From the NCBI GenBank assembly GCA_016793875.1, contig JAEULG010000025.1:1252-65251 (forward strand): 64,000 nucleotides of DNA, given 5' to 3'. Positions 1-47,883 of this stretch are shown here, in pieces. Under the pieces are notes generated by a model. The model saw only the letters and a program-made list of their open reading frames with translations. It was not told where the DNA came from and did no database searches. The DNA is from Rhodospirillales bacterium (lineage in GTDB: Bacteria > Pseudomonadota > Alphaproteobacteria > Rhodospirillales > Defluviicoccaceae). The position numbers were made by a program, and so were the translations under genes. Position 1 is the first letter of the stretch; each line of letters begins with the position of its first letter.

Positions 1-203
1 ACCGGCTCAGCCGCCGCCGGCCCGACCGTCAGCGCAATCACGGTATCCCCCTCGCCACGCAGGCGCAGGGCCAACTCCAGTGCTGCCGCATCGGCCGGAT
101 CCATGATGTACAGGGTCCGGTCTGCGTCGATCTCGCCGGTCAGCGGATCGACATCGATCGTCGCCGGATCGGGTACAAGGCTGAGACAAACGGCCAGCCG
201 CAT
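1..203 (-). CDS. etfB: Electron transfer flavoprotein beta subunit (FixA/EtfB-like), N-terminal 67 codons only; gene runs off the left edge
   Basis: Absent from the ORF track because no stop lies in the window. ATG at 203-201 follows a GAGGAG SD (complement of 207-216). Translation MRLAVCLSLVPDPATIDVDPLTGEIDADRTLYIMDPADAAALELALRLRGEGDTVIALTVGP fits the ETF-beta N-terminal pattern (V.K.VPD ... NP.D..ALE.AL). Confidence 0.8.
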   Translation of the reverse strand, partial: MRLAVCLSLVPDPATIDVDPLTGEIDADRTLYIMDPADAAALELALRLRGEGDTVIALTVGPAAAEP

Positions 204-219
204 CGGCCTTCTCCTCGAC

Positions 220-504
220 TCACGATTCCCGGAAGGTCACGCCGAAGCCGCCCGGCGGATATGTCCACCGCAACGCTCCCTCCTTACTGCAGACAAGGAA
301 GCAGGTGCCGCACTCGAAGCATTGCTCGTAGTTGAACAGCACGCTGCCGTCGTCGAGCGGCACGAACAGGTTTGCCGGGCAGACGCAGACACAGGCCTTC
401 GCCGCACAGGTCCGGCACTTCTCCGGGTCGAGGACAATGTGCGGTTCCTCCGCCACCTTGAAGCGGACGGTGCGCATCTTCTCCTCGTGCGTCGTCATCA
501 CCAT
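220..504 (-). CDS. fixX: FixX-type ferredoxin-like protein
   Basis: Internal start MVMTTHEEK of ORF 220..744. Cys clusters CRTCAAKACVCVCP and CFECGTCFLVC. About 94 aa, directly after fixC with overlapping stop/start (498-504). Confidence 0.85.
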   Translation of the reverse strand: MVMTTHEEKMRTVRFKVAEEPHIVLDPEKCRTCAAKACVCVCPANLFVPLDDGSVLFNYEQCFECGTCFLVCSKEGALRWTYPPGGFGVTFRES

Positions 505-1826
505 AGGTAGCTCCTCGCTGCCTGCAGAAGGTCGGCGATCAGGTGACGGGGCTTGGCGCCGGACTGGCGCATTGCCTTGAGGTAGAGCGGCAGGATCTTC
601 TGCTTGGCGTTGCCGTCGACCCTGAACAGCCGTTCGAAACTGGCCGCCGCCATCTCCGGGTAGAGGTTCTGCAGCCTCTCGCCGTTGACGAAGTGCGGCG
701 CATGACGGTAGGCGCGGAAGTCGGTGAAGACATTGTAGGGCCACAACAACTCGGTGTAGCGCTCAAGCGTATGGCGGGTGAAGTCGCGGACCCGGTGGGC
801 CTCGATCGCAGCCTCGCCGGCCGCCATGCCGGACTGCATGGCGTAGTTGATGCCCTCGATGTAGAGCCCGGTGGCAAGGCAGAAGCCGGCGGCATCGCCG
901 GCGACCAGCATGCCGGAGGCCACCAGCTTCGGCATCATCTCCCAGCCGCTCTCGGGGATCAGGTGGGCCGAGTATTCGCGCAGCTTCGCACCACGCAGCA
1001 GCGGCGCCACTGCCGGGTGCGCCTTGAACAGCTCCAGCAGCTCGTAGGGACGCTTGCCCGTCTCGACCAGAGAGGAGACCTGGGCGATCACCCCCAGCGA
1101 CAGCGAATTGCGGTTGGTGTAGAGGAACGCCCCGCCGCGCGCCTTGTCGGTGATCGCGCCGACGTATTCCAGCACCATCCCTTCGTTGCCGGAAAGATTG
1201 AAGCGCTCACGGATCGCCGCTTCCTCCAGACCCAGCACCTCCTTGACGCCCAGCGACAGCTCGTGCGTCTCCAGACGCCGCTGGAGGCCTGCCTGCTGCG
1301 CGAGAAAGGAATTGGCGCCATCGCAGGCAATGACGAGATCGGCGCGGATCTCGCCGTCGTCGCGGCGGACTTTCACACCGACCACCTTGCCGCGCTCCTT
1401 GATGACGCCATCGACCACTGTCGAGGTGAGCAGGAAGGCGCCCGCGGCCTCCGCCTGCGCCGCGAACCAGCGGTCGAACTTCGGCCGCAGGATGGTGAAG
1501 GCATTGTACGGCGGGGCGGCGTAGTCGGGGCTTGCGGAGCGAAAGTCGAGCGAGACCGCGGTGGTCGGCGAAATCAGGATGACGTCGCGCCGGCAGATGT
1601 AGCGCTCAACCGGCGCCTGTTCCCACCAGCCGGGGATCAGCTTGTTGAGCATGGCGCTGCCGTAGAACGCCGCGCCCGAGACGTTTTTCGCACCGGGGTA
1701 TTCACCCCGTTCGATCAGCAGCACGTTGAGCCCGGCGCGGGCGGCGACGATGGCGGCGGCGCTGCCCGCCGGACCGGCGCCGACGACGACGACGTCGAAG
1801 TGGTCGGTCGGCTTGGGCGCTCTCAT
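498..1826 (-). CDS. fixC: Electron-transfer-flavoprotein:quinone oxidoreductase FixC
   Basis: Start MRAPKPTDHFDVVVVGAGPAGSAAA (FAD dinucleotide-binding motif) inside ORF 498..2615. ATGA overlap with the upstream ETF-alpha stop (1823-1826). Length about 442 aa, typical of FixC. Confidence 0.9.
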   Translation of the reverse strand: MRAPKPTDHFDVVVVGAGPAGSAAAIVAARAGLNVLLIERGEYPGAKNVSGAAFYGSAMLNKLIPGWWEQAPVERYICRRDVILISPTTAVSLDFRSASPDYAAPPYNAFTILRPKFDRWFAAQAEAAGAFLLTSTVVDGVIKERGKVVGVKVRRDDGEIRADLVIACDGANSFLAQQAGLQRRLETHELSLGVKEVLGLEEAAIRERFNLSGNEGMVLEYVGAITDKARGGAFLYTNRNSLSLGVIAQVSSLVETGKRPYELLELFKAHPAVAPLLRGAKLREYSAHLIPESGWEMMPKLVASGMLVAGDAAGFCLATGLYIEGINYAMQSGMAAGEAAIEAHRVRDFTRHTLERYTELLWPYNVFTDFRAYRHAPHFVNGERLQNLYPEMAAASFERLFRVDGNAKQKILPLYLKAMRQSGAKPRHLIADLLQAARSYLW

Positions 1827-2926
1827 GGCAAAGCCTCTCTTGCGGAAGCGTCGCGCGGGCGGCCAGCGGCGGCAGCGACGGGGGTGCGGATGACCGGATC
1901 GAGAAGGGCGGGCCGCACCGCCGGCGCGGCCTGTGCCGCCTGCCGCAGGGTGCGCAGCTTGCGGATCAGCACCGGGACTACCGCATGCAGGTCGCCCACA
2001 ACGCCCAGATCCGCCAGCTTCAGCAGTGGCGCCGTCCGGTCGGTATTGACGGCGATGACCGTCTCGCTGCCGGTGATGCCGGCGACGTGCTGGCCGGCCC
2101 CGGAGACGCCCAGCGCCAGGTAAAGCTTCGGTGCGACGATCTTGCCGGTGGTGCCGATGAAGCGGTCCGCCGCCAGCCAGCCGCGGTCGGCGACCACCCG
2201 GGTGCCGCCCAGCGCCGCTTCCAGTTCGTCGGCGAGTTGCTGCAGCAGCGCCATCCCCTCCGGCCCGCCGACGCCGAGCCCGCCGGAGACGATGCGCTCC
2301 GCCTCGGTCAGGTCGACGTCGTGCGGATCGGGCGGCACCGTCCGCAGCGTCCGGTCGCGGAAGGTGGCGGGATCCAGCTCCGGCTCGACGACGGTGACGC
2401 TCGCCGGCCGGCCGGGCAGTGCCGGGCCGACGCCGCGCACGCCCGGCCACAGCATCACCATCACCGCCGTGCCGCGCGCCCAGATCTGGCGCTCGTGCAG
2501 CTTGCCGTCGTGGCTGACCCGGAACACCTCGGGGTAGCCCTCGTCGGTCACCTTGACGCGGATGCAGGCGCTGGCCAGCGGGATGCGCCAGCGGGCGGAC
2601 AGGCGCGGCAGCCACGAGCGGCCATAGCCGCTGTCTGGTGCCAAGGTGAAGACGGCGCGGGTCTCCTTGAGTACCGGCGCCACTGCCGCGAGCCAGCCGT
2701 CGGCGCTGAATTGCGCCAGCGCCTGATGCTCGATTACCGTGACGCGGTCAGCACCGTGCGCCGCCAGTTCGTCGGCAAGGGCCGCCGTCTGGTGGCCGGG
2801 AAGGATGACATGCACCGCGGTGGCGAGGCTCTCGGCGACGTCGCGCGCTTCCTCGACGCACTCCAGGCTCGCCGGGGTCAGCCCGCCGTAGATGGTCTCG
2901 GCAACGACAACGACCGGTGCCGCCAT
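1823..2926 (-). CDS. etfA: Electron transfer flavoprotein alpha subunit (FixB/EtfA-like)
   Basis: 367-aa ORF. The C-terminal FAD-binding region (PKLYLALGVSGAGQHVAGI, VIAVNTD) is typical of ETF-alpha. Start overlaps the stop of the upstream flavoprotein gene (TGATG at 2924-2928). Confidence 0.9.
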   Translation of the reverse strand: MAAPVVVVAETIYGGLTPASLECVEEARDVAESLATAVHVILPGHQTAALADELAAHGADRVTVIEHQALAQFSADGWLAAVAPVLKETRAVFTLAPDSGYGRSWLPRLSARWRIPLASACIRVKVTDEGYPEVFRVSHDGKLHERQIWARGTAVMVMLWPGVRGVGPALPGRPASVTVVEPELDPATFRDRTLRTVPPDPHDVDLTEAERIVSGGLGVGGPEGMALLQQLADELEAALGGTRVVADRGWLAADRFIGTTGKIVAPKLYLALGVSGAGQHVAGITGSETVIAVNTDRTAPLLKLADLGVVGDLHAVVPVLIRKLRTLRQAAQAAPAVRPALLDPVIRTPVAAAAGRPRDASAREALP

Positions 2927-4884
2927 CAGACTGCCCTCCCCGCCTTCTCGCCCTCGATGATCGCCGCGTGCGCCCGTCGCGGAGCGAGGCAGTCGCCGAT
3001 GCGGTGCAGATCCGCCACCTGTCCCTTGAGGGCGGTGTAAAGCCGGCAGTTGGCCCGCCGATGAATGGCGAGGACGACGGTATCGACCTCGGGAAAGCGG
3101 ACGATCTGGCCGCTATAGTTGTGGAGCGCCGTCACCACGCCGTCCTCGATGCTCAGCACCGAGTGGTTCGGCGTGCAGCGGATGCCGAGCCGGCGCGCTT
3201 GCCGGTACCAGTTCTCCAGGTCGAGGGTGACGCCCAGGTCCTGGCCGACGTAGAGGGTCTGCGTGACCACCTCCACCGCGCACCCCTGCTCCGCCATGAA
3301 CTCAGCGGTGCTGGTCGCCTCGTGGAAGCCGAGCCGGTCGATCAGCAGTACGCGCCGGCCCGGCGTCACCCGGCCGGCGAGGATGTCTGTCGCATCGGCG
3401 ACGCGGGGGCCGTCGGCGCCGGGGATGGCACGGCGGTCGGGCAGCGAGCCGGTCGCCACGATCACCGCATCCGGCTGCCCCGCGAGAACCATCTCCGGCG
3501 TCGCGGCGACGCCGGTCTGAATCCCCACCGGCAGCTGCTCGACCTCGTGCACGAGATTGCGGATGATATCGCCGAACTCGGCGCGGGCGGTGACCCGCAC
3601 CGCCCAGGCGACCTGACCCCCGAGCCGGTCTTCCTTTTCCAGCAGGGTGACCTGATGGCCGCGGCGGGCGGCGACGGCTGCCGCCTTCAATCCGGCGGGA
3701 CCACCGCCGATCACGGTCACCCGCTTCGCCGGCTTCGCCGGCTGGAGGGTGCCGGCGCCAAGCGACTGCTCGCGGCCGGTGGCCGGCGTCTCGATGCAGC
3801 CGAGCCAGCGGTTCAGGCCCATCCGGCCAACGCATTCCTGGTTGCACGACAGGCACAGGCGGATGTCGTCGGCGCGGTTTTCCCGCGCCTTGCGGGCAAA
3901 TTCCGGGTCGGCGATCTGCGCCCGGACGATGCCGACGAGATCGGCATGCCCTTCCGCCAGCAGCCGCTCCGCCTGGATCGGATCCTTGACCCGGCCGACA
4001 CCGATAACCGGCAGGTGCACCGCCTTGCGGATCGCCGACGGAATGAACATCGCGTAGTTGGGCGGGATGCGCATCGACGCTTCGATCATGTAGAGCGTCT
4101 GCGTCGCGGTCCCAATGCTGGTGTTGATGCAATCGATCAGCCGGTCACGCTCGAGCAACCGGGCCAGATCCACCGCCTCCTCGATGGTGATGCCGTCGCG
4201 GATGAGCTCGTCGCCGCAGAGGCGGACGCTGAGCACGTAGTCGCGGCCGACCGCCACGCGGATGGCGCCAATGATCTCGCGCAGCAGCCGCGCCCGGTTC
4301 TCCAGGCTGCCGCCGTAGGCATCGGTCCGGGTGTTGGTGCTGCGCGACAGGAACTGGCGGACGATCGAGGAATGGGAGCATTGCAGTTCAACGCCGTCGA
4401 AACCGCCACGCTTGGTGTAGCCGGCGACGGTGGCGTAGCCGTCGATGATCTGGTGGATGTCCTCGTGCTCGACCGCCTTCGGCACCTCACGGAACAGCGG
4501 ATCGGCGATGGCGGAGGGCGCCCAGGCCGGCAGCCGCGTGAACATCCCACTGCTCTGGCCGCCGTTATGGTTGATCTGCGCAAGGATGGGCGTTCCCTCG
4601 GCATGAACCATCTCGGTGATGCGGCGGTAGCCAGGAAGCACCGCAGGATTGAAGGCGTGGATCAGCTTCTCGTAAGGGTGGTCGGTCGGGTGGACCGAGT
4701 GCTCCTCGGTAATGATCAGGCCGGCGCCACCGCGCGCCCGCTCGCGGTAATAGCAGGCGTGGCGGTCAGTCGGCATGAAGTCTTCGGCGAAGTTGGTGAG
4801 GTGCGCCGAGAACACGATGCGGTTCTGCACCGTGATGTTGCCGATCTTCAACGGCGAGAACAGCAGGCGTGAAGGGCTGCTCAT
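2926..4884 (-). CDS. FMN/FAD iron-sulfur flavoprotein of the trimethylamine dehydrogenase / 2,4-dienoyl-CoA reductase family (OYE-like barrel + NAD(P)/FAD domain)
   Basis: Start MSSPSRLLFSPLKIGN. OYE-type barrel motifs (GGAGLIITEEHSVHP). Cx2Cx3Cx11C motif CLSCNQECVGRMGLNRWLGC. Rossmann motif VIGGGPAGLKAAAVAARRGHQVTLLE. GGGAGG SD lies inside the end of the upstream gene. Confidence 0.85.
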   Translation of the reverse strand: MSSPSRLLFSPLKIGNITVQNRIVFSAHLTNFAEDFMPTDRHACYYRERARGGAGLIITEEHSVHPTDHPYEKLIHAFNPAVLPGYRRITEMVHAEGTPILAQINHNGGQSSGMFTRLPAWAPSAIADPLFREVPKAVEHEDIHQIIDGYATVAGYTKRGGFDGVELQCSHSSIVRQFLSRSTNTRTDAYGGSLENRARLLREIIGAIRVAVGRDYVLSVRLCGDELIRDGITIEEAVDLARLLERDRLIDCINTSIGTATQTLYMIEASMRIPPNYAMFIPSAIRKAVHLPVIGVGRVKDPIQAERLLAEGHADLVGIVRAQIADPEFARKARENRADDIRLCLSCNQECVGRMGLNRWLGCIETPATGREQSLGAGTLQPAKPAKRVTVIGGGPAGLKAAAVAARRGHQVTLLEKEDRLGGQVAWAVRVTARAEFGDIIRNLVHEVEQLPVGIQTGVAATPEMVLAGQPDAVIVATGSLPDRRAIPGADGPRVADATDILAGRVTPGRRVLLIDRLGFHEATSTAEFMAEQGCAVEVVTQTLYVGQDLGVTLDLENWYRQARRLGIRCTPNHSVLSIEDGVVTALHNYSGQIVRFPEVDTVVLAIHRRANCRLYTALKGQVADLHRIGDCLAPRRAHAAIIEGEKAGRAV

Positions 4885-4885
4885 C

Positions 4886-6859
4886 TCAAACCTCCCGTCC
4901 CGCCCGATAGCCTTCCAGGATCGCCGAGGCCAGCGAGCGCGGCGCAACGCAGTCGCCGGCGCGGAAGACGCGCAGTCCGGCCTCCTTCAGGGTGAAGTAG
5001 AGGTCCTCGTCGGGGACCTCGTGCGCCACCGGGACCACCAGATCGACGTCGCCGATGACGACCGGAGAGCGGTCGAAGGCGTCGATGCCGCTGACGCTGC
5101 GCCCATCCACTTTCTCCACCACCACCTGCGGCCGGAAGACGATGGCCTTGGCGGCGGCGCGCTGGTTCCACGGCGTCAGCTCCATCGAGGCGGTCAGCCG
5201 CTGGCCGACGAACATATCGCGGGTGACCACCTCGACCGTCCAGCCGTGGTCGGCGAGCCACTCGGCAACACCCATGCCCCGATGATCGCCGACAACATCG
5301 AGCACGACCGCCTTTCCGGGGGTGGCGGCGGCCTTGCCGGCCATCACCTGTCGCGGAGCCAGCACCGGCATGCCATCGGTGAACGCGACGCGCGGGACGG
5401 TGCCGGCCCTCGCACCGACGGCAATGATCACCGCATCGGGTTCTTCTTCCTGCACCTCTGCCAGCGTCACGACCGTGCCGGTCCTGATGGTGACGTTCAG
5501 CCGACGGACCTGTGCTTCCAGCCAGTCCACCGCGAGCCCCAGCCGCTCCCGGCCAGGCGCCATTGCCGCAAGCCGGATCGCGCCGCCCAATCCGCCATCC
5601 TGCTCGCACAGGGTGACGCTGTGACCGCGCAGGGCGGCGACCCGTGCCGCCTCTAGGCCTGCCGGCCCGCCGCCCACCACCAGCACCCGGTAGTGCACCG
5701 GGGCGCGGGTCAGCGGAGCGAACTCGGGCGTGGCCTCGTAGCCGGCTGCCGGATTGTTGACACAGGACAGGCGCGGGTTCTGCACCAGCCCCACGACGTT
5801 GTCCTGGTTGGAGAGCACGCACGGCCGTACGGCCGCGGCGTTCCCCTCGCGGACCTTCGCCGGCAGCTCCGGATCGGCGATCAGCGCGCGCGTCATCTCG
5901 ACGGCATCGGCTTCGCCGCGGGCGATGATTCCAGCGGCCATGCCCGGATCGACGATGCTGCCTTGCGCGAACACCGGCACCGGCACCGCCGCCTTGATCA
6001 CGGCAGAAAGGTGAGCGGCAAAGCCCGGCGGCGCATAAAGACCGGGGCGGGTGAGATGGGCGCTGTAGATGCTGCCGCTAGTGACGCTAACGAAGTCGGC
6101 GAGGCCAGCCGTAGTGAACAGGCGGGCGATCTCTACCGCATCCTCCGGCTTGATGCCGGCCCAAGGTGCATATTCATCACCCACCAGCCGCAGCCCGACG
6201 ATCCCCGGTCCGACGGCGCCGCGCACGCCTTCCAGGATGGCGCGGGCGAAGCGCAGCCGGTTTTCGGCGCTGCCGCCCCAGCCGTCGCTTCGCTGGTTGG
6301 TCAGCGGCGAGAGGAACTGGCGGATGAGGCTGTCCTGGCCGGCGTTGATCTCGACGCCGTCGAGGCCGCCGGCCATCGCGTAGGCCGCCGCCTGGACAAA
6401 GCCATCGATGACCGAGACGATGTCCTCCTCCTCCATCTCCTTCGGCATTTCGCGGCTGTTGACCTCGGGGACCGGCGAGGGCGCCCACAGCGGCAGCTGC
6501 GAGTAGTGGCTGCTGCCCTGCATGCCGCTGTGAGTGAGGTGCGCCAGCGCCAGGGCGCCATGACGGTGGACTGCATCTGCCACCAGCCGGTAGCCGGCGA
6601 CCACGCCCGCCTCGTAGCCGAAAATGGCGTACTCGTACGGCCAGTCGGAGGGATGGACGACGCTGCCTTCGAGAACGATGAGGCCCGCGCCACCGGCGGC
6701 GCGGGCACCGTAATAGGCGGCGTGCCGCTTCTCGAAGCGGTGATGTGTGGCGAAGTTGGTCTGATGTGCCGCGAAGACGAGACGGTTTGCCGCCTCCCGC
6801 CCGCCGAGCGCCAGCGGGGCGAAGAGACAATCGAAGTCGTCCTGCCGCAGCGTCGGCAT
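4886..6859 (-). CDS. Paralogous TMADH/dienoyl-CoA-reductase-family flavoprotein lacking two of the four Fe-S cysteines
   Basis: 657-aa ORF with the same architecture (GGAGLIVLEGSVVHP; VVGGGPAGLEAARVAALRGHSVTLCE). The segment aligned to the Fe-S motif reads CVLSNQDNVVGLVQNPRLSC. Confidence 0.8.
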   Translation of the reverse strand: MPTLRQDDFDCLFAPLALGGREAANRLVFAAHQTNFATHHRFEKRHAAYYGARAAGGAGLIVLEGSVVHPSDWPYEYAIFGYEAGVVAGYRLVADAVHRHGALALAHLTHSGMQGSSHYSQLPLWAPSPVPEVNSREMPKEMEEEDIVSVIDGFVQAAAYAMAGGLDGVEINAGQDSLIRQFLSPLTNQRSDGWGGSAENRLRFARAILEGVRGAVGPGIVGLRLVGDEYAPWAGIKPEDAVEIARLFTTAGLADFVSVTSGSIYSAHLTRPGLYAPPGFAAHLSAVIKAAVPVPVFAQGSIVDPGMAAGIIARGEADAVEMTRALIADPELPAKVREGNAAAVRPCVLSNQDNVVGLVQNPRLSCVNNPAAGYEATPEFAPLTRAPVHYRVLVVGGGPAGLEAARVAALRGHSVTLCEQDGGLGGAIRLAAMAPGRERLGLAVDWLEAQVRRLNVTIRTGTVVTLAEVQEEEPDAVIIAVGARAGTVPRVAFTDGMPVLAPRQVMAGKAAATPGKAVVLDVVGDHRGMGVAEWLADHGWTVEVVTRDMFVGQRLTASMELTPWNQRAAAKAIVFRPQVVVEKVDGRSVSGIDAFDRSPVVIGDVDLVVPVAHEVPDEDLYFTLKEAGLRVFRAGDCVAPRSLASAILEGYRAGREV

Positions 6860-6864
6860 CGGCG

Positions 6865-7935
6865 TTACTCCGCCGCCTGCGCGGCAGTCGCCTCGGCAGC
6901 AAGCGGCGCGGCGACGCTCGCCTCATCGTCGCTGCCGAAGACGCAGTCGGGATCGGGCGCGTCCAGCGAGCGGCCGGTGAAGTGCTTCACCGCCATGCAG
7001 CCGCCGTGGCATGCGCTGTAGGCGTTGCACGTCTTGCAGCTGCCGCCGACCTGCCATTGCCGCAGGTGGGCGAACAGCGGTGATGTCCGCCACACGCCGG
7101 CGAAGCCACCCTCGTTGCGGACGTTGCCGCCGGAAAACTCTGGCGCGAGCATGAACGGGCACGCATAGACCTCGCCGACCGGATCGACGCAGCAGACGAT
7201 GCGCCCGGCCCCGCACATGTTCAGCCCGTCCATCGGCTCGCCATAGGCGGAGAGGTGGAAGAAGGAATCGCCGGTCAGCACGTCGCGGTGCGCCCGCAGC
7301 CAGTCGTAAAGGCCGCGGTTCTGCGTGTGCGTCGGCCGCAGGGCGTCCCAGACGTCGACGCCGCGGCCGCTCGGGCGCAGCCGGGTCAGCCGCAGTTCGG
7401 CGCCGTAGCCGCTGGCCAGCGCGTACAGCGCATCGAGCTCGGGATAGTTGTGGCGGGTGACGGTGGCGTTGATCTTGAACCGAAAGCCGCGCCCGGCAAG
7501 CCGTTCCATCGCCCGCACCGCGCGCTTGAACGAGCCTTCGCCGCGCACCGGATCGCTTGTTTGCGCGGTGGCACCATCGACGCTGATCTGCACGTCAAGA
7601 TAGTCGCGCGACGCGATCCAGTCGGCGGCATGGTCGTCGATCAACGTACCGTTGGTGCTGAACTTCACGCCGATGCTGCGGTCGAGGGCGTAGTCCATCA
7701 GCGCGAAGAAGTCGGGCCGGCTCATCGGCTCGCCGCCGCCGACATTGATGTAGAACACCTGCATCTCAGCCCACTCGTCGATCAGCCGTCTGGCCTCGGC
7801 GGTGGTCAGTTCGTCGCGACGGCGCTTGCCGGACGACGACAGGCAGTGGACGCAGCGCAGGTTGCAGCCGTAGGTGAGTTCCCAGGTCAGGCAGATCGGC
7901 GCGTCCAGGCCCTTGCGGAAGACCTCGTAGGTCAT
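6865..7935 (-). CDS. mftC: Radical SAM/SPASM peptide maturase, mycofactocin maturase MftC-like
   Basis: Start MTYEVFRKGLDAPICLTWELTYGCNLRCVHC (Cx3Cx2C). Also MQVFYINVGGGEP, GVKFSTNG, LRLTRLRPSGRG, VLTGDSFFHLS, LNMCGAGRIVCCVDPVGEVYACPF and the SPASM motif CKTCNAYSACHGGC. These blocks closely match remembered actinobacterial MftC sequences. ATGA overlap with the upstream methyltransferase. Confidence 0.85.
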   Translation of the reverse strand: MTYEVFRKGLDAPICLTWELTYGCNLRCVHCLSSSGKRRRDELTTAEARRLIDEWAEMQVFYINVGGGEPMSRPDFFALMDYALDRSIGVKFSTNGTLIDDHAADWIASRDYLDVQISVDGATAQTSDPVRGEGSFKRAVRAMERLAGRGFRFKINATVTRHNYPELDALYALASGYGAELRLTRLRPSGRGVDVWDALRPTHTQNRGLYDWLRAHRDVLTGDSFFHLSAYGEPMDGLNMCGAGRIVCCVDPVGEVYACPFMLAPEFSGGNVRNEGGFAGVWRTSPLFAHLRQWQVGGSCKTCNAYSACHGGCMAVKHFTGRSLDAPDPDCVFGSDDEASVAAPLAAEATAAQAAE

Positions 7936-8972
7936 CGGACATGCTCCCGTTGCTGTTCGTACGGCGGGCACGGGCGGTCGAGGACGATCCAGCCGCCGTG
8001 ATGGGTGAAAAAGCGGCAATCGGCCGTGGTCTGCCGGCCGAGCTCGCGCAGGCTGCGCTCGTCGAAGATCTGGCGGTGGCCGTAGCGGGTATCGGGCTCG
8101 CGCTCGAACGGAACGGCGACGATCAGTCGGCGCCGGGTGAGCGCCCACAGGTTCCGCATCGCGCGTTCCGTCTCGGCCGCCGTCAGATGCTCGAGCAGAT
8201 GGATGGCGGTGACCACATCGAAACCTCCGCCGGGATCGAGCTCCCCGACGACACGCCCGGCGAGGATGTCGGCGCAGACGAAGCCGACGCCCGGCACCTG
8301 CCGCTGCTGACGGTAGTCGTTCGCCAGTGCCATTAGCGCCGGATTGATGTCACAGCCGGTGATGCGACGGGCGCCTGCGCGGTGATCGCTGCCGGGCTGC
8401 CCGGCAAGGACGAGCGGCAGGAAGCCGAAGCATGTCGCAACGTCGAGGATGGTCTCGGCCGCCACCTCGGCGACCATCTGGGCGACCTTTGCGTAGATGG
8501 CGCGGAAACTGGCGATGAAGTCGGTCTGGCCGGCTGCTACCCCTGTTGTCGCGGATCCCCGGAGTGCTCCGAGAGTGTTGTCGTAGAACCGGTGCCACGC
8601 CCGGCGCTCGTTGCCGTCCATCGACCTGACGATCGCACCGACGTAGCGCTGGAAATTCTCATGTTCGCTGCTCGCATAGGGGCTTGGCAGGACGGATACG
8701 GCGTGCCGGACCTGCGCCAACAGCGGCAGCAGCTCGTCCGCCACGTAGGCGCCGACGTTGTTGTCGATCTGCTCGGGCGCGAGGCTGTGGACGACGAGGA
8801 GGTCGTCTGGGTCGGCTTCGGCCTGCCCGGCGGGAAGGCCGTAGACGGTGAAGTGATGGCTGGCAGCGAGCCGCGTCGCGTCGCCGTCGAGCCCGCTGAC
8901 CAGCGCCCGATGTCGATGACGCGAGAGGGTTAGCGGGCTCATGGCGCGAACTCCCGATCCATCGCTCATCAT
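7932..8972 (-). CDS. Class I SAM-dependent methyltransferase with about 150-aa N-terminal extension; candidate MftM-like mycofactocin-associated methyltransferase
   Basis: Methyltransferase core ILDVATCFGFLPLVLAG ... ITGCDINPALMALA ... FDVVTAIHLLEHL. Overlap-coupled to the VWA gene upstream (8969-8972) and to mftC downstream (7932-7935). The MftM assignment is inferred from context. An alternative start lies at 8942. Confidence 0.75.
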   Translation of the reverse strand: MMSDGSGVRAMSPLTLSRHRHRALVSGLDGDATRLAASHHFTVYGLPAGQAEADPDDLLVVHSLAPEQIDNNVGAYVADELLPLLAQVRHAVSVLPSPYASSEHENFQRYVGAIVRSMDGNERRAWHRFYDNTLGALRGSATTGVAAGQTDFIASFRAIYAKVAQMVAEVAAETILDVATCFGFLPLVLAGQPGSDHRAGARRITGCDINPALMALANDYRQQRQVPGVGFVCADILAGRVVGELDPGGGFDVVTAIHLLEHLTAAETERAMRNLWALTRRRLIVAVPFEREPDTRYGHRQIFDERSLRELGRQTTADCRFFTHHGGWIVLDRPCPPYEQQREHVR

Positions 8973-10438
8973 CTCCCCACCGCGCCGGGACGGATCAGTT
9001 CACCGGCGATCTTGCCGAGCTGTTCCAGGTTGCGGACCACCTCGGTGCGATGGCACACGGGCTCGTAGAGCGGCATATCAGAGCTGCCGAGGCCCCAGCT
9101 GCCGCGCGGTTCGGGGGACAGCCAGGCGAGATGCCGGCAGCGGCGGCGAATTTCTTCCAGTGCCCAGACGTTGGGCGGATTGCGGTTGCCGCGGCCGTCG
9201 CCCAGCACGATCACCGTCGTTTCCCGCGTCACCTCCGACAGGTGCCGCTGGCAGAAGATTTCCAGAGCCCGCCCGTAGTTGCTGTTGGCATCGCAGTCGA
9301 TCAGCCTGCCGGCGAACACCGCGGCAATGGCATCGTCGATGTCGAGCTGCTCGAAGGACTGGCTGGCGTCGGCCAGGTCGCTGACGAAGACGTAGCTGCG
9401 CACCCGCTCGAACAGCGACTGCAGGCTGTAGACGAGGTGCAGCATGAAGCGGGCGGTGTTGCGAACAGATAGGCTGACGTCGCAGATGACGACGATGCGG
9501 GGCTTGTCCCGGCGCAGACTGGTCATCACCGGCCGGAACGGAATGCCGTCGTAGGCCATGCTGGCGCGCAACGTCCTGGCGACGTGGATGCGACCGCGAC
9601 GCGACGCGACGCGGCGGTACGATCGGGCGCCACGCAGCCGCCGGCCGAGCCGGCGGACGATCTCCGCCATCTCCCGCCGCTCGCCCTCGCTGAAGCCGCC
9701 GATGCGGGCGCCCGGGCGGCGCGGCTGCTCGTCCGACTGTCGTCCTGCCTGCCGCGCCAGCTCGGCCTCCAGGAGCCGCTTCAGGGTCTCCGGCAAGGTC
9801 ATGGCGATCGCCGGCGCCTGCTGCGCCAGCAGGTCGAGCAGAGCCTCGTCCACCTCCAGATCGCGCAATTCCTCCAGCAGACGCCCGATGGAACCGGCTG
9901 AAACGTCCGCATCCAGCGTTTGCAGGATGTCGGAGATATTGAGTTGACCGGGGCGGGACCCGCCGCCGGCCTGCCGGGCATTCACCTGGTGCGTCGCCCG
10001 CTGCATCACCGGATCGAGGAGGCTCTGGGCGCGCTTGAGGATCAGGTTCTGGCCGAATTGCGCCAGTTCGCCCGGCTGGATCTTGGTCCGATCGCCGGCG
10101 CGCGGCGGGCCGCCGTCGACCGGAGCGCCTTCGTCCTCGGTATCAAGCGCGATCTTGTCGGTGTCCGGCGATGGAACCGTGGAGGATGCTCCGGCTTCAT
10201 CCTCCGCTTCGGGGGCTGCCCCCGGCAGGCCGAAGAACAGGTCGAATTGCTCGTCGAACAGCGGGATGTCGGCGGCGTTCTTGATCAGCGTGCTCTGGAG
10301 GGCGATGCGGACCGTCTCCCGGTCGACCAGGCGCACCCACGCCAGCGCGCGCACCGCATCCACAGCTTCGGCCGGCGATATGCCGACACCGGAGCGCTTG
10401 AGAACGCAGATGAAGCGGTTAACCGCCGCGTCCATCAC
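8969..10438 (-). CDS. VWA domain protein (CoxE-like), partner of the MoxR ATPase
   Basis: 489-aa ORF. C-terminal VWA domain with MIDAS-type DxSxS (VVICDVSLSV). Start overlaps the MoxR stop (10435-10438). Confidence 0.8.
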   Translation of the reverse strand: MMDAAVNRFICVLKRSGVGISPAEAVDAVRALAWVRLVDRETVRIALQSTLIKNAADIPLFDEQFDLFFGLPGAAPEAEDEAGASSTVPSPDTDKIALDTEDEGAPVDGGPPRAGDRTKIQPGELAQFGQNLILKRAQSLLDPVMQRATHQVNARQAGGGSRPGQLNISDILQTLDADVSAGSIGRLLEELRDLEVDEALLDLLAQQAPAIAMTLPETLKRLLEAELARQAGRQSDEQPRRPGARIGGFSEGERREMAEIVRRLGRRLRGARSYRRVASRRGRIHVARTLRASMAYDGIPFRPVMTSLRRDKPRIVVICDVSLSVRNTARFMLHLVYSLQSLFERVRSYVFVSDLADASQSFEQLDIDDAIAAVFAGRLIDCDANSNYGRALEIFCQRHLSEVTRETTVIVLGDGRGNRNPPNVWALEEIRRRCRHLAWLSPEPRGSWGLGSSDMPLYEPVCHRTEVVRNLEQLGKIAGELIRPGAVGR

Positions 10439-11535
10439 TCCTCGCCTCCGGGCGCATCCTGGCGCAGGCGGTCGCGGCCGAAATAGCGGGCGGCATGCTC
10501 CCGCTGCCTCGCCTCCATGTCGTGGCGGTCGGGGATAGCCTGAGGCGCCGGCGGCCGCGGCCCTGCGGGTGATCGGCTCCGACCGCGGTCATCGAGGCCT
10601 TCGGAGGCACCCGGCTGCGGCCGATCCGAGCCCTCCAGCAGCCAGGCCAGATGCTCTTCCACCTGGCGCGTGTCGCGCTCGTACTTGACCAACAACTGGA
10701 TCGTTTCTTCCAGCAGCCGGCGGTCAAGCATCTCGACGTTGAGCAGTACCAGGGCCTGCGCCCAGTCCAGCACCTCGCTGATGCTGGGCGCCTTGCGCAG
10801 GTCGAGGCTGCGCATGCGGCGGACGACCTCGACGGCATGCGCCGCCAGCGCTTCGGCCATCGCCGGCACCTTCAGCCGGATGATCTCCAGTTCCCGTTCC
10901 TCGTCCGGATAGCCGATGAACAGGTGCAGGCAGCGGCGCTTCAGCGCGTCACTGAGGTCGCGGGTGTTGTTGCTGGTGATCACCACGTAGGGCGGGGCTT
11001 TCGCCGCCACGGTGCCGATCTCCGGGACGGTCACCTGGAAGTCGCTAAGGAACTCCAGCAGGAACGCCTCGAACTGCTCTTCCGCCCGATCGATCTCGTC
11101 GATCAGCAGGACGACCGGCTCGTCGGCGCTGACCGCCTGCAGGATCGGCCGGCGGACGATGAACGATTCCGAGAAGAAGACATCCTCGTGCTGGCGCAGC
11201 CGTTCCACCGCTGTGCGCAGATCATCTGCACCCGCAAGGAAGGTTCCGATCTTCTCGCGCAGGATCTGGGTATAGAGGAGCTGCTTGCCGTACTCCCACT
11301 CGTAGAGCGCGTGCGCCTCGTCGAGGCCGCCGTAGCATTGCAGCCGGATCAACTCGCGGCCGAGGACGCGGGCGACCACCTTGGCCAGCTCGGTCTTGCC
11401 GACGCCGGCCGGGCCTTCGATGAGGATCGGCTTGCCCATCTTCCAGGCGAGATAGACGACCGTCGCCAGCTTGCGGTCGCAGATGTAGTGCTGCTCCGCC
11501 AGTTGCTCGATGGTCTGCCCGATGGACTCGAACAT
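10435..11535 (-). CDS. MoxR-family AAA+ ATPase
   Basis: Internal start MFESIGQTIEQL of ORF 10435..11928. Walker A GPAGVGKT, Walker B VVLLIDEIDR. Typical MoxR length (about 366 aa). Confidence 0.85.
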   Translation of the reverse strand: MFESIGQTIEQLAEQHYICDRKLATVVYLAWKMGKPILIEGPAGVGKTELAKVVARVLGRELIRLQCYGGLDEAHALYEWEYGKQLLYTQILREKIGTFLAGADDLRTAVERLRQHEDVFFSESFIVRRPILQAVSADEPVVLLIDEIDRAEEQFEAFLLEFLSDFQVTVPEIGTVAAKAPPYVVITSNNTRDLSDALKRRCLHLFIGYPDEERELEIIRLKVPAMAEALAAHAVEVVRRMRSLDLRKAPSISEVLDWAQALVLLNVEMLDRRLLEETIQLLVKYERDTRQVEEHLAWLLEGSDRPQPGASEGLDDRGRSRSPAGPRPPAPQAIPDRHDMEARQREHAARYFGRDRLRQDAPGGEE

Positions 11536-11553
11536 GGGCGTCCCCGGCCTGCC

Positions 11554-11580
11554 GGACCTGCTCGGGGGATAAGCAGGTCC
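11554..11580 (-). other. 9-bp-stem hairpin in the 97-nt gap between the ADH and moxR
   Basis: ggacctgct (11554-11562) and agcaggtcc (11572-11580) are perfect complements separated by a 9-nt loop. This is the only intergenic gap above 20 nt in the 11-gene array. Confidence 0.5.
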
Positions 11581-11632
11581 GTGCCTGTGACAAGCTGGTC
11601 GAACCGCGGAGTCGGACGGCGCGGGCTTCGGC

Positions 11633-12898
11633 TCAGTAGTACGAGCCGACCAGCGAATGCTTGACGATCGGCGCCACCGCCTCGTAGGTGACCTCCCGGG
11701 CGTTGCCCGGGGTCGAGCCGTCGCCCTGCACGTGCCGGGTGATGCGGTCGACGTTATGGTCGTCGCCGTTGATGCCGCCGTTCTGCCACTGAGCGTACTT
11801 GCCCTTGCCCATCTGGGACTTGGTATAGCTGCCGATGCTGGCGAAGTTGGACGGGATGCCGACGTCCTTGCTGAGCTTGACCGCCGCTTCCAGCGCCCGG
11901 TCGGCGGCGGCGACGTCACTGAGGCCATCCACGTTCTCGCCCATGGCGCGGGCGATGTCGCGGAACCGCTTGTAGCAGGTCGGCATGTTGAACTCCCACA
12001 CGCGCGGCAGGCCGATGGCGTTGTTCAGCCCGTGATGGCTGTCATAGAACGCGCTGACCGCGTGCGAGATGGAATGGATAATGCCGAGGCCGCCGCTGTT
12101 GAACGCCTGCGCCGAGATGTAGGAGGCGAACATCATGTTGTAGCGCGCCTCGTAATTGGTCGGCTCGAACACGGCGCGTCGCAGGTTCTGCGCCACCACC
12201 TCGATCGCCTTGAGCGCGCTGCCGAGGCTCGGCATGAAGTCAAGCCGCGAGACGTAGGGCTCGGATGCGTGGGCGAGGACATCGAAGCCGCAGTAGGCGG
12301 TCAAATCCTGCGGCAGGGTGAAGTGCAGCACCGGATCGTTGATGCTCAGCGTCGCCGGGCAGTTGTCGTCGAAGCCGAGCCACTTGTACGGCGCCTTCTC
12401 CGACGTGGTATCGGTGATGACGAAGGCCCAGCTCGTCTCGGAGCCGGTGCCGGCGGTGGTGTTAACGGCGATGTGCGGCGGGTTGTCGGGATTCTCAGAC
12501 TTGTTGAAGCCGTCGAACTCATTGACGTTGCGGCCGTCGTGAGCGATGACCAGACGCGCGCCTTTGGTCGCATCGGTAGTGCTGCCGCCACCAACGGAAA
12601 TAAAGCTGTCGCACTTTTCCTTCATATAGAGATCGGCGATCTCCATGCAGTTGTAGTCTTTGGGATTGGACTCGATCTTGTCGTAAACGATGACGTCGAC
12701 GCCCTGATAGCGCACCTTGCCGACGATATCGTCGATGACGCCGGTGCCGCGCAGGCCGCTGCTGGTCAGCAGCGCTCGTTTAAATCCAAGCTTCTTCGCT
12801 TCGACGCCAATCAGCTCGTATGACCCCGGCCCGAGCAGGCCGCGGGGGATCCGATGGAATTCCTTGATCGGGAATTGCCAAAGCTTTTCGACCTGCAT
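11633..12898 (-). CDS. mno: Iron-type (group III) alcohol dehydrogenase, NDMA-dependent methanol dehydrogenase (Mno/ThcE)-like
   Basis: 421 aa. WQFPIKEFH, GFKRALLTSSGLRG, ESNPKDYN, GGGSTTDATKGARLVIAHDGRNVNEFDGF, TTAGTGSETSW and HSISHAVSAFYDSHHGLNNA match the remembered actinobacterial NDMA-methanol dehydrogenase family, including the long C-terminal tail. GGAGGAG SD precedes the ATG. Confidence 0.85.
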   Translation of the reverse strand: MQVEKLWQFPIKEFHRIPRGLLGPGSYELIGVEAKKLGFKRALLTSSGLRGTGVIDDIVGKVRYQGVDVIVYDKIESNPKDYNCMEIADLYMKEKCDSFISVGGGSTTDATKGARLVIAHDGRNVNEFDGFNKSENPDNPPHIAVNTTAGTGSETSWAFVITDTTSEKAPYKWLGFDDNCPATLSINDPVLHFTLPQDLTAYCGFDVLAHASEPYVSRLDFMPSLGSALKAIEVVAQNLRRAVFEPTNYEARYNMMFASYISAQAFNSGGLGIIHSISHAVSAFYDSHHGLNNAIGLPRVWEFNMPTCYKRFRDIARAMGENVDGLSDVAAADRALEAAVKLSKDVGIPSNFASIGSYTKSQMGKGKYAQWQNGGINGDDHNVDRITRHVQGDGSTPGNAREVTYEAVAPIVKHSLVGSYY

Positions 12899-14388: not shown

Positions 14389-15208
14389 GGCGACGGCCTT
14401 TTCGAGTGCAGCGCCATGGTTGCGCCTGGACCGTAGACTGCCTGACCTGCCTCCGCCGAACCGGCGGAGACGTCGATCGGAGCCGCGCCCCGCCACATCG
14501 CCGAACGGGAACATCCTGTCACCGGCATCGACAGTTCGCCCGGAATGATTGCCCTGTTCCGGACCAATCCGGCCGACACGACGGGCGAGGTGGCGGATAT
14601 GCGCCTCGATCCGGGCAGCCATCCCGCCTGGCTGGCGCGTCGCCGCTGACCCACCGTTTTCGGCCCGCCACGGCTTGCCGCGGAGCCCATGGCGCTATTG
14701 GAGCTTCCGGACGAACAACACAGAGATGGTTGTTCCTGCCTGGAGCCCCGCCGCGGTGCCGCCTTCGTCCGAAGGACGCGCCGGCTGGCGCAACGGCCGC
14801 TGCCATCATCGCCGGTGATGCCGGGGGGATCGAAGGCGCTAGTTCACCGAGCCACTGGCCAGCTGCACTCAAATAACCCATTGCACGGCTTGTAAGCCCT
14901 TGTACCGGCGTCCCGCGTCATCGCCCAACCGCGAACGCGAAACCTCATCGCGTGGCTCGCCGATGCCGTCTCCTCGACGTCGCAACGCGGGCAGGCCAGC
15001 TCAGGCACTGCCGCGCGAGCACGACCGCCGGAGGGCCGCCCCCCTTGGTTGCCGGAGGGTGCCGCGATGCTTCTTTCGCAGGCCGCCGCTTCATTTTCCC
15101 CTTGATGGAGTACTATCCACGGTCTAATAGGGTAAACAATGTTTTTAGTGACGCTCATAGTTCTATCTACGCGTTCTAACATAGGCCGTTTTGGGGTACA
15201 TCAGAAAA

Positions 15209-16789
15209 ATGGACGCATCGAAGGGCGCCTCGTCCCAATTCCTGGACGCATCCGTGGACCCGCTGGAAGATGAGCATGACCCGGGGCACCGCGAGACCGG
15301 GCGTCCGACCTCGGCCGCGCCGGAAGCGTTCCTCGTCTGCCATCCCGTAGCTGTGTTGCTGGTCAATGGGAAGGCAATGATCCGCGACGACGTTCCGCCG
15401 GATGTGGCGCTGGCGGCTCCCTGGACAGCGGTCATCGACGCCGGCCTTGCCGGAGAAAGCAATCGGCGATTCCTCCCGGGTGAGGCGATGCTTGGTTCCG
15501 ACCGGGAGAGCTCCCAGGGCCTGATCGTTCTCCCTGGCGGAGACGAGAAGGCGGCAGCGTCCCTGCGATCAGCCCTGGCGAATCCCGAACTCATTCAGGA
15601 GTTGCGGCGGCGCCTGCGGCGGCTGGGCACTGAACTGGCCTCCGCGCAGACAGCGGCTGCAGTTACCGCCGGCGGTGCCAGCGAGAACAAGGTGGCGCCT
15701 GCCGCGCCGGCACCGCTTGCGGAGGCGAGCCTCGCCGCAGCCGGTATCCGGCTTGCGGGAGACCCGGCAGCCACGGGTGGCGACGGCGGCGGCGATGCGG
15801 AGCCGGCGCCGCCCTCGCTCATCGCGGGGGTCCGCAGGCTACCGAAGGGGCTGCGGCGTCTCGCCCGGCTGGTGCGTAAGCGCCTCGGCCGGGCCAAGGA
15901 CAAGACCACCCGGGCGCGCGTCAAGTCACTGGATCGGGACGTAAAGGAGCTCTTCGAACTGCTGCAGCGCACCAGCGCCTTGGAAGCACGGCTGGAATCG
16001 GAAGGCGCCCGGATCGACTGGGCCCTCGGCAGCACCGAGGGCATTACCGAACAGGTCGATGCCTATCTTGCGTGCCGCGAGACGGACGGTTATCGGGCTG
16101 CCTTCGCCTCGCCCACCCCGCTGGTCTCAGTCTGCGTCGCTACCATGGACCGCGCCGACGTGCTGGTTGAACGGGCGCTGGCCTCGCTGCGCCAGCAGAC
16201 CTATCGCAACCTGCAGGTGATCGTCGTCGGCGATCACTGCACCGACGACACCGCACAGCGAATTGCCGCAATTGGCGACTCCCGCATCCAGTTCGTCAAT
16301 CTGCCCGAGCGCGGCCCCTACCCCCACCCCGGCCTCGACCGCTGGTATGTCGCCGGCTCCAACGCGATGAACCACGCGCTGTCGCTGTGCGAAGGCCAGT
16401 TCATCACCCATCTCGACGACGACGATGCGATGGTCCCACACCGGATCGAAACGCTCGTCGCCGCCGCGCTCACGGATCAGGCCGATTTCCTGTGGCATCC
16501 GTTCTGGTACGAGCAATGCGACGGCACCTGGCGGCGTATTGGCGACGGGCGTCTGCAGCTGGGTCAAGTCTCCACCGGCTCCATCTTCTATCACCGCTAC
16601 TTCGCGCAGATCCGCTGGGACGTTCACGCCTATCGGTTGCGGGAGCCGGGGGACTGGAACCGGATCCGCAAGATCAAGCTGCTCCGTCCCCGTACTCACT
16701 TCGTCGACGAACCCCTGCTGTACCACCACCAGGAGCAGCAGGCGCACGCGGCCTTTATCGCCCGCGACGGCGAACGCTTCCTGAATTAG
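15209..16789 (+). CDS. Family 2 glycosyltransferase with about 290-aa N-terminal extension (low-complexity plus predicted coiled-coil segment)
   Basis: GT2 core VSVCVATMDRADVLVERALASLRQQTYRNLQVIVVGDHCTDDT ... ITHLDDDDAM (DxD). ATG at 15209 sits just after an AT-rich promoter-like patch (15100-15200). The track start at 15191 is TTG. Confidence 0.75.
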   Translation: MDASKGASSQFLDASVDPLEDEHDPGHRETGRPTSAAPEAFLVCHPVAVLLVNGKAMIRDDVPPDVALAAPWTAVIDAGLAGESNRRFLPGEAMLGSDRESSQGLIVLPGGDEKAAASLRSALANPELIQELRRRLRRLGTELASAQTAAAVTAGGASENKVAPAAPAPLAEASLAAAGIRLAGDPAATGGDGGGDAEPAPPSLIAGVRRLPKGLRRLARLVRKRLGRAKDKTTRARVKSLDRDVKELFELLQRTSALEARLESEGARIDWALGSTEGITEQVDAYLACRETDGYRAAFASPTPLVSVCVATMDRADVLVERALASLRQQTYRNLQVIVVGDHCTDDTAQRIAAIGDSRIQFVNLPERGPYPHPGLDRWYVAGSNAMNHALSLCEGQFITHLDDDDAMVPHRIETLVAAALTDQADFLWHPFWYEQCDGTWRRIGDGRLQLGQVSTGSIFYHRYFAQIRWDVHAYRLREPGDWNRIRKIKLLRPRTHFVDEPLLYHHQEQQAHAAFIARDGERFLN

Positions 16790-16793
16790 ACCC

Positions 16794-17834: not shown

Positions 17835-18035
17835 TGTTCGACCGCTTGCGCCGCGGTTTGCTCCGCGAACGCTGCGGGGATCGTGGCACGGCGGTTTGTC
17901 TTTGGGGGGACCAGAATGGGCTACCAGACATCGGGACGGAGCGACCGGCGGCTGTTTCGGGATCTGGAGCCCGGTGAGCTCTCGCCGATCGGAACTCATC
18001 GCCCTGCCGAGCCACCAGCCCCGGTGCGGACGGGC

Positions 18036-47502: not shown

Positions 47503-47883
47503 ATGGCTGCCCAAACCATGCCGCCGGCCGCCGCGACGAACCGTCTGATCTCCCTCGGCGGCACCTTGCTGCTGGCGACGGCGGCAATGGCTGCGGCCTA
47601 TGGGGTGCGCGTCGGCTTTGTCGAGTACGCCCCGTCGGCGTGGGCCTGCCAAGCGGTCGCGCCGCCGTGGTGGTGTCCGTTGCGGCTGGTCGGGGTGGAG
47701 GGGCTGCGCCTCGGGGTCGTCGGCTTCGTTGCCCTCGCCTGCGGCCTGGGAGCCCTGTTCCTTGGCTGCCGGCGGTTGGCGCTGGCGGCGGTCGGCTTCG
47801 GCGCTGCCGGTCTTGCGCTCTATGTTCCAGAGCCCGCCGCCGGGGGTGCACTGCTGGGGGCGATGGCGCTGCTGCGCCGGTAG
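47503..47883 (+). CDS. Hypothetical small polytopic membrane protein
   Basis: 126 aa, 3-4 hydrophobic segments, high GC3 consistent with coding, no clear SD. Its 3' end overlaps the convergent GH17 gene by 64 nt, which lowers confidence. Confidence 0.45.
   Translation: MAAQTMPPAAATNRLISLGGTLLLATAAMAAAYGVRVGFVEYAPSAWACQAVAPPWWCPLRLVGVEGLRLGVVGFVALACGLGALFLGCRRLALAAVGFGAAGLALYVPEPAAGGALLGAMALLRR

Follow-up and report, generated by a model that had tools for sequence, protein, structure and literature searches.

A mycofactocin maturase gene, mftC, in a 16-gene array of a Rhodospirillales bacterium

An array of genes that crosses the window edge

The DNA considered here, hereafter the window, is a stretch of 64,000 nucleotides from a Rhodospirillales bacterium (assembly GCA_016793875.1, contig JAEULG010000025.1, positions 1,252 to 65,251 of the forward strand), and its first 12,898 nucleotides are occupied, on the minus strand, by a tightly packed gene array. 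Within this array, at 6865-7935 (minus), lies mftC, the gene for the radical S-adenosylmethionine (rSAM)/SPASM maturase of the mycofactocin system. Specifically, the encoded protein of 356 amino acids (aa) scores 616.1 bits against the MftC model TIGR03962 (cut-off 265), aligning with model positions 2-338 of 339, and no more than 170 bits against any other rSAM family in the NCBIfam scan. Its translation shows the CxxxCxxC motif and the SPASM cysteines, and it is 60% identical to the actinobacterial MftC of Mycolicibacterium chubuense. Neither the window nor L007, a 35-kb contig described below, revealed a second MftC copy.

The first-pass annotation of the window had singled out this gene as lacking an adjacent precursor gene (mftA) and chaperone gene (mftB) and as being coupled to a methyltransferase gene instead, and what it described at the level of the DNA stands. 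The ATG of mftC (7935-7933) indeed overlaps the TGA of a methyltransferase open reading frame (ORF; 8972..7932) as ATGA, this ORF being 346 aa long, or 336 aa when read from a conserved Met11. The widest gap in the array is, as stated there, one of 97 nt, between the genes mno (also mdo) and moxR (11536-11632). Likewise, a six-frame scan of the window revealed no ORF with a C-terminal G[VIL]Y or C[GA][VIL]Y, and tblastn of the window with MftA, MftB, MftD, MftE and MftF from two sources gave nothing at E<=0.01, which bears out the absence of mftA and mftB from it. Of the two explanations that had been offered, namely that the other mft genes are to be found beyond the window or that the enzyme acts on a different substrate, the former is correct.

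Public assemblies were searched for exact copies of the MftC and FixX proteins encoded in the window, and the near-identical contigs retrieved in this way match the window DNA at 99.4-99.7% identity. Five of them reach beyond the mft genes past window position 1: L007, from the NCBI metagenome-assembled genome (MAG) GCA_044222295.1, and L008-L011, from four ENA metagenome assemblies, one of which is labelled wastewater (a sixth, L012, reaches only the family 2 glycosyltransferase, or GT2, gene). L007 is 99.5% identical to window 1-10513, and window position 1 is its position 10504. On all five contigs the array carries on without a change of strand: etfB is followed by a creatininase-family gene, a GT2 gene, a gene of 57 aa, a short-chain dehydrogenase/reductase (SDR) gene and a gene of 90 aa. 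Of these genes, etfB (L007 10302-11171) is cut by the window edge; its 5′ part lies at window 1-203 (minus), where tblastn places EtfB residues 1-67 at 203..3. The creatininase-family gene is mftE (L007 11168-11959; 176.7 bits, cut-off 172), the GT2 gene is mftF (L007 11956-13500; 430.7 bits, cut-off 280), the 57-aa gene is mftA (L007 13570-13743; TIGR03969, 48.7 bits, cut-off 25), the SDR is of the mycofactocin-coupled type (L007 13781-14590; 345.8 bits, cut-off 300) and the 90-aa gene is mftB (L007 14587-14859; TIGR03967, 66.3 bits, cut-off 33), so that all five pass their NCBIfam cut-offs. The C-terminus of MftA reads ...VLIEEVSIDGMCGVY, ending in SIDGMCGVY, and MftB bears the motif RPERFGGLAY. 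Given that window position 1 corresponds to L007 10504, the start of mftA is some 3.1 kb, and that of mftB some 4.1 kb, past the left edge; together, mftE, mftF, mftA and mftB lie 0.7 to 4.4 kb outside the window, and, counted from where mftC ends, mftA and mftB are 9.9 to 11.2 kb further downstream.

The whole array, with mdo as its first gene and mftB as its last, thus comprises 16 co-directional genes in about 17.2 kb, in the order mdo-moxR-vwa-methyltransferase-mftC-OYEa-OYEb-etfA-fixC-fixX-etfB-mftE-mftF-mftA-SDR-mftB (OYEa and OYEb standing for two proteins of the FadH/old yellow enzyme, or OYE, family), with gaps of at most 97 nt and many neighbouring genes overlapping by 1-7 nt. In a promoter and terminator scan, terminator-like sites were no commoner in the array than in shuffled sequence, and nothing stood above background. 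The mno-moxR spacer holds a perfect 11-bp stem-loop without a U-tract (window ~11545-11575, minus strand), a possible processing or stability element; the fold of the whole spacer has a z-score of only -1.0 and is not significant.

Gene order across species and the identity of mftC

One genome per GTDB species was scanned with the window-type MftF, and the resulting 80 loci were mapped by tblastn. The nearest MftF loci belong to Rhodospirillales MAGs (79% identity), to Defluviicoccus vanus Ben 114, Defluviicoccus SSA4 and Geminicoccaceae, to Candidatus Competibacter and Contendobacter (Gammaproteobacteria) and to Chloroflexales. Genes for an electron transfer flavoprotein (ETF) are found upstream of mftF, in the array layout or the portion of it within reach, in 44/80 species-level loci, from Rhodospirillales, Defluviicoccus, Competibacter and Chloroflexales. 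Where enough sequence was available downstream of mftF (33 loci), a small ORF with a CGVY tail follows it within 1.5 kb in 29, an SDR in 30 and MftB in 31. Measured between their ends, mftC and mftA are a median of 10.2 kb apart (range 9.3-10.9 kb, n=22). The adjacency of the methyltransferase gene and mftC is conserved, beyond what chance would give, and the ATGA overlap between the two recurs in 10/16 species-level alphaproteobacterial loci, most of the others having gaps of 8-106 nt. In L094, a 58%-identical relative, mdo-moxR-vwa-methyltransferase-mftC is contiguous and the last two genes again overlap by 4 nt, and the Competibacter locus L093 keeps the same five genes with a 91-aa gene between the methyltransferase gene and mftC. 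The protein encoded by this inserted gene (L093:7347-7622) resembles the nickel-responsive SCO4226.

The layout, a variant way in which a known system is arranged, is the norm for a large non-actinobacterial clade (44/80 loci), and the rarity implied by the first-pass annotation was overstated. It could be asked whether the split between mftC and mftA-mftB is an artefact of assembly or binning, or else a recent rearrangement confined to one strain, given that most of the supporting contigs come from metagenome assemblies. The same order is nevertheless seen in independent assemblies of different samples and in the complete genomes of Defluviicoccus vanus (NZ_CP053923.1) and Defluviicoccus SSA4 (CP058705.1), and it spans Alpha- and Gammaproteobacteria as well as Chloroflexales. 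Since the complete genomes show a contiguous array, this explanation is largely refuted and its probability is negligible.

A second alternative concerns the enzyme itself, which might be a diverged MftC paralogue, recruited together with the methyltransferase for another peptide or small molecule and working independently of MftA and MftB. Such a view could draw on the window having neither mftA nor mftB, on mftC being coupled to a methyltransferase gene instead of mftB and on the genes directly downstream encoding FadH/OYE enzymes instead of MftD. Against it stand the 616 bits on an equivalog model that sets MftC apart from other rSAM families, the lack of any other MftC in the window and the 35-kb contig, the canonical MftA and MftB encoded by the same array on the near-identical contigs, and the dozens of species with the conserved layout in which such an mftC is always paired with mftA and mftB. 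In addition, in a neighbour-joining tree the window's MftC belongs to an Alpha/Gammaproteobacterial clade that is distinct from the main clade of actinobacterial MftC proteins; this proteobacterial clade also comprises the MftC proteins of the other loci with the same layout and has a single actinobacterial-type locus, L057, as its sister. A complete mft locus elsewhere with an mftC of its own, which would have spoken for a paralogue, was not seen, the other mft genes sharing this mftC. The paralogue explanation is accordingly a very remote one, and action on a different substrate finds no support. We conclude that 6865-7935 is, with high probability, the genuine and single mftC of a complete-looking mycofactocin locus, because of its score on the equivalog model, its being the sole copy and the textbook MftA core and MftB encoded by the cluster. 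That it looked like an orphan is due to the window edge cutting the array and to the conserved alternative gene order.

In the published pathway (PMC11778925), MftC acts with MftB to decarboxylate and cyclise the C-terminal Val-Tyr of MftA, MftE frees the cyclised core 3-amino-5-[(p-hydroxyphenyl)methyl]-4,4-dimethyl-2-pyrrolidinone (AHDP), MftD then makes the keto-amide, MftF adds glucose units, MftM methylates the glycan, and the cofactor then serves nicotinoprotein dehydrogenases, among them Mdo and the SDR. Carried over to the present locus, this would mean that the Val-Tyr end of MftA is decarboxylated and cyclised by MftC with MftB as its chaperone, that MftE would release the cyclised core, that MftF would attach a beta-1,4-glucan chain, which the MftM-like enzyme would O-methylate, and that Mdo would then use the finished cofactor. 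These steps are taken from the known pathway; what the present analysis adds are the gene identities, their order, their overlaps and their conservation across species.

With the canonical mftABCDEF cluster (M. tuberculosis Rv0691c-Rv0697; also M. smegmatis; with mftR and mftG), the locus shares the IDGMCGVY core of MftA as well as MftB, MftC, MftE and MftF, all five of which pass the same NCBIfam equivalog models, and the mycofactocin-coupled SDR and Mdo are the redox partners to be expected. Unlike in the canonical actinobacterial cluster, the host is a Gram-negative proteobacterium, mftC lies some 10 kb upstream of mftA, an SDR gene splits mftA from mftB, and two modules are built into the array, namely mdo-moxR-vwa with the methyltransferase gene and OYE-OYE-EtfAB-FixCX.

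Some points weigh against reading the locus as a complete mycofactocin operon. Firstly, mftA and mftB were demonstrated on near-identical contigs, rather than on the window's own molecule. Secondly, it is from spacing alone that the 16 genes are predicted to form one operon and that the ATGA overlap may couple the translation of the methyltransferase and MftC. Thirdly, and unlike in the canonical cluster, mftD is missing: tblastn with two MftD proteins, that of M. chubuense and that of the Thermomonospora locus L074 (TIGR03966, 709.9 bits), detected none in the window or on L007, the contig past its left edge, and tblastn with the L074 protein detected none within 10 kb of mftF in 44/44 loci of the ETF/OYE type. 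Since no mftD was found, the mycobacterial pathway is not fully accounted for in cis.

The mdo-moxR-vwa genes and the methyltransferase

The first gene of the array (11633-12898, minus) is mdo, which encodes a methanol dehydrogenase of the type dependent on N,N-dimethyl-4-nitrosoaniline and linked to mycofactocin; it passes TIGR04266 (652.7 bits, cut-off 625) and is 63% identical to a Tsukamurella Mdo annotated by the NCBI Prokaryotic Genome Annotation Pipeline (PGAP). It is followed by a gene for a MoxR/MadB-like AAA+ ATPase (10435-11535, minus, the start being that of the gene call on the near-identical contig L001), which matches Pfam AAA_5 and AAA, scores 356 bits against NF047784, under the cut-off of 475, and is 52% identical to the MoxR encoded beside mdo in Tsukamurella. 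The next gene (8969-10438, minus) encodes a VWA/CoxE-like protein, a MoxR partner (Pfam VWA_CoxE, E=4.5e-35), which can be aligned from end to end with the Tsukamurella VWA protein, at 30% identity. The synteny of an alcohol dehydrogenase gene with moxR, vwa and a methyltransferase gene, on which the first-pass annotation had remarked, is therefore real, the dehydrogenase being Mdo by its TIGR04266 match. Another MoxR/VWA-dehydrogenase module inside an mft cluster is found in L057 (4116-7188), where genes for a Zn-dependent alcohol dehydrogenase and a fused MoxR-VWA protein lie between mftC and mftD.

The methyltransferase gene (7932-8972, minus) encodes a class I enzyme that uses S-adenosylmethionine (SAM) and resembles MftM, the mycofactocin oligosaccharide 2-O-methyltransferase (MSMEG_6237 in M. 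smegmatis), which acts on the second glucose of the glycan. Read as its longest ORF, of 346 aa, the gene begins at window 8972, with its ATG and the stop codon of vwa sharing the sequence ATGA. Met11 (window 8942) is nearly invariant among homologues and would give a protein of 336 aa, in agreement with the gene calls on near-identical contigs, and is the likely start. MftM (NF041255) is the only family that the protein matches meaningfully in the NCBIfam scan (E=2.1e-49, model positions 48-289 of 289), and in a plasmid database the sole two matches were both PGAP-annotated mftM genes, from Tsukamurella and from M. chubuense NBB4. With BLASTP, residues 58-333 align with 53-291 of the 293-aa M. 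chubuense MftM (31% identity, 283 aligned positions), and hhalign gives 99.94% probability and E=4.8e-37 over 238 columns, covering template positions 50-292 of 293. The motifs aligned by hhalign outside the Rossmann core are VHDxxP, IVRS, WxRFYxN, CFGF, HLLEH, IVAVPxE, YGHxQxF and a C-terminal HxGGWxxxDR.

In M. smegmatis, MftM is encoded 6 kb from mdo, the mft cluster itself including no methyltransferase gene, and 99% of the genomes that bear mdo also have mftM (Ellerhorst 2022, PMC9679996). On a Tsukamurella plasmid (L096), mftM lies beside genes for Mdo, MoxR, VWA and an iron-containing alcohol dehydrogenase (FeADH) and a two-component system. The synteny of mftM with mno-moxR-vwa that the first-pass annotation had cited for mycobacteria is correct. 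On the M. chubuense NBB4 plasmid pMYCCH.01 (L097), mftM divergently adjoins mftA-B-C-D, which makes it an intermediate case between M. smegmatis, with mftM outside the mft cluster, and the array described here, in which the gene lies inside the biosynthetic array and overlaps mftC. As these two actinobacterial plasmids illustrate, adjacency of mftM to mft genes is not unique to Proteobacteria.

The methyltransferase is probably an MftM orthologue that is physically part of the biosynthetic array, with which its near full-length homology, its linkage to mdo-moxR-vwa and its co-occurrence with mftC and mftF are in keeping; its predicted substrate is the mycofactocin glycan. Several features tell against this assignment. 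The search with the MftM model, which had been proposed as a check, does match the protein, yet with 168.4 bits it remains under the curated cut-off of 200. Identity to annotated MftM proteins is only 31-35%, and the protein is longer than these (336-346 aa versus 268-293 aa). Finally, NCBI names the close homologues generically ("methyltransferase domain-containing", "class I SAM-dependent methyltransferase"), from which it also follows that the curated MftM model misses this branch; the best 120 homologues are 47-99% identical, and those among them that are named come from Rhodospirillales, Competibacter, Hyphomicrobium and Gammaproteobacteria.

An alternative is that the enzyme is not a functional MftM, serving rather as an accessory to the Mdo/MoxR/VWA maturation module or methylating the aglycone or another metabolite, so that its adjacency to mftC would reflect nothing but co-expression with mdo. 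Besides the low score, the low identity and the generic names given by PGAP, this alternative has on its side the 50-55 extra N-terminal residues and internal insertions of the protein, a search of PDB sequences that returned weak generic methyltransferase matches only (RebM was not recovered) and hence no informative relative, and the fact that the gene travels with mdo-moxR-vwa, and not strictly with mftF, in actinobacteria and in these proteobacteria. The alignment with MftM nevertheless extends along almost the whole protein and includes family-specific motifs, no other family is meaningfully matched, mftF, whose product makes the glycan substrate, is always present in the same cluster, and the published co-occurrence of mdo and mftM is equally consistent with a true MftM function. 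On balance a role other than that of MftM is unlikely, and the protein is taken here as a probable MftM.

The flavoprotein module, mftD and mftG, and the meaning of the locus

Downstream of mftC, the array continues with genes for two tandem FadH/OYE-family paralogues, 40% identical to each other. OYEa (4886-6859, minus) scores 752.8 bits against TIGR03997, below the cut-off of 793, and OYEb (2926-4884, minus) passes the same model with 972.8 bits, as a mycofactocin-system FadH/OYE family oxidoreductase 2. OYEa is without two of the four Fe-S cysteines, reading C..S...N where C..C...C is expected, and the same is seen in 22 orthologues; OYEb retains the full C..C...C...C 4Fe-4S motif, with all four cysteines kept in 34 orthologues. 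The two proteins may accordingly form a heteromeric pair, or one of them may be a degenerate partner. The PDB sequences closest to OYEa are 2-naphthoyl-CoA reductase (NCR), FadH and histamine dehydrogenase, and those closest to OYEb are the same three and trimethylamine dehydrogenase (TMADH).

Next come genes for the FixB-like ETF alpha subunit, etfA (1823-2917, minus; NF038209, the mft_etfA model, 183.9 bits, below the cut-off of 240; Pfam ETF and ETF_alpha recorded on near-identical contigs), for a FixC-like ETF-linked FAD oxidoreductase (498-1826, minus; NF007542, 363.8 bits, below cut-off; Pfam ETF-QO_FixC_C) and for a FixX-like ferredoxin (220-504, minus; NF011993, E=6.5e-18, below cut-off). 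With etfB, the EtfA-FixC-FixX-EtfB set is complete between mftC and mftE (window 1-2917 and L007:10302-11171). Both EtfA and EtfB match mycofactocin-associated ETF models (NF038209 and TIGR04503, respectively) below the cut-offs. Among the NCBIfam mycofactocin FadH/OYE models (TIGR03996 and TIGR03997), it is TIGR03997 that OYEb passes, and for OYEa, EtfA and EtfB the mycofactocin OYE/ETF models are the best or second-best match; the link of OYE and ETF to mft clusters is thus already encoded in curated models. In the literature searched, no mycofactocin paper also contained 'electron transfer flavoprotein', and nothing was found that links mycofactocin to old yellow enzyme, dienoyl-CoA reductase, FixABCX or ETF.

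Two flavoenzymes of the FadH/TMADH type together with EtfAB-FixCX, between mftC and mftE, are always present in the ETF/OYE-type clade (Alpha- and Gammaproteobacteria and Chloroflexales). As regards MftD, the SNHGG motif of a scan for FMN_dh was absent from the window, and the annotated genes past mftB on L007 include none for an FMN_dh protein. The L074 MftD matches, by tblastn, ten actinobacterial-type loci without OYE and ETF genes, and two actinomycetotal loci, L077 and L091, have an OYE gene (L091 also ETF genes) beside mftABC and likewise no MftD within reach. A protein search with the L057 MftD was uninformative on Proteobacteria, its best 120 of at least 8000 matches being 77-100% identical and the few with organism names all from Actinomycetota. 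In the ETF/OYE-type clade, mftD either lies at another place in the genome or has its step carried out in another way; MftD is not universal (Haft 2011, PMC3023750). Nor did the scan of window genes or the annotation of the contigs reveal any mftG, and no obvious MftG candidate lies beside mftF in L074 or L084. About 25% of the genomes with mftC are without MftG, the replacement of which is described as an open question, and Defluviicoccus vanus is listed in a table of the same paper as having MftC and lacking MftG (Graça et al. 2025, PMC11778925).

The flavoprotein module may offer a substitute for one or the other. ETF is the electron acceptor of trimethylamine dehydrogenase, and histamine dehydrogenase catalyses the deamination of a primary amine, so that a module linking mycofactocinol to the quinone pool, or replacing MftD, is conceivable. 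More specifically, the module might take the place of MftG, mycofactocinol being re-oxidised and its electrons passed via ETF and FixCX to quinone, or that of MftD, with an OYE paralogue acting as an amine dehydrogenase, similar to histamine or trimethylamine dehydrogenase and with ETF as acceptor, that would oxidatively deaminate AHDP to premycofactocin. This proposal is put forward tentatively, and it is less likely than not that either role holds.

The rest of the window, as far as scanned, is that of an ordinary Gram-negative chromosome, with ribF-ileS-lspA, DUF3035, M16 peptidases, Mla-like genes, rpoD, dnaG, carA, leuA, mreB and a FadL-type outer-membrane protein. Beyond 13 kb, a Pfam scan of about 30 of the approximately 47 called genes (all those of at least 400 aa included) revealed no mft, GMC oxidoreductase or FMN_dh gene. 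On the plus strand, 2.3 kb from mdo, the block at 15191-19759 encodes two GT2 glycosyltransferases, a DegT-family aminotransferase and a hexapeptide acyltransferase, and looks like an amino-sugar modification cassette. Further along (29365-30950, plus), a type III polyketide synthase gene overlaps one for an ICMT-family membrane methyltransferase, a pair that looks to be of the alkylresorcinol/alkylpyrone type. Two ORFs of coding-like composition lie on the minus strand: one of 461 aa (39796-41181) without any Pfam family at E<=1e-4, and one of 564 aa (47820-49514) whose sole Pfam match is to Glyco_hydro_17, below threshold.

The orphan appearance of mftC as such matters little, since the position of the window edge and a conserved, alternative order of the genes account for it. 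The layout behind it has consequences for annotation, in that mycofactocin cluster callers that expect mftA, mftB and mftC to be adjacent will mis-score this large clade, and probable MftM enzymes of an entire proteobacterial branch go unrecognised by the curated model. A more interesting lead than the orphan mftC is the OYE/ETF module in the absence of mftD and mftG: with neither gene within reach, it constitutes a testable candidate for the regeneration or maturation of mycofactocin without MftG or MftD, and, if it does replace MftG, it would answer how the roughly one quarter of mftC genomes without MftG regenerate the cofactor. The literature searched contained no paper that names mycofactocin together with Defluviicoccus or Competibacter in its main text. 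Mycofactocin-dependent oxidation of methanol or other alcohols is probably present in these abundant glycogen-accumulating organisms of wastewater.

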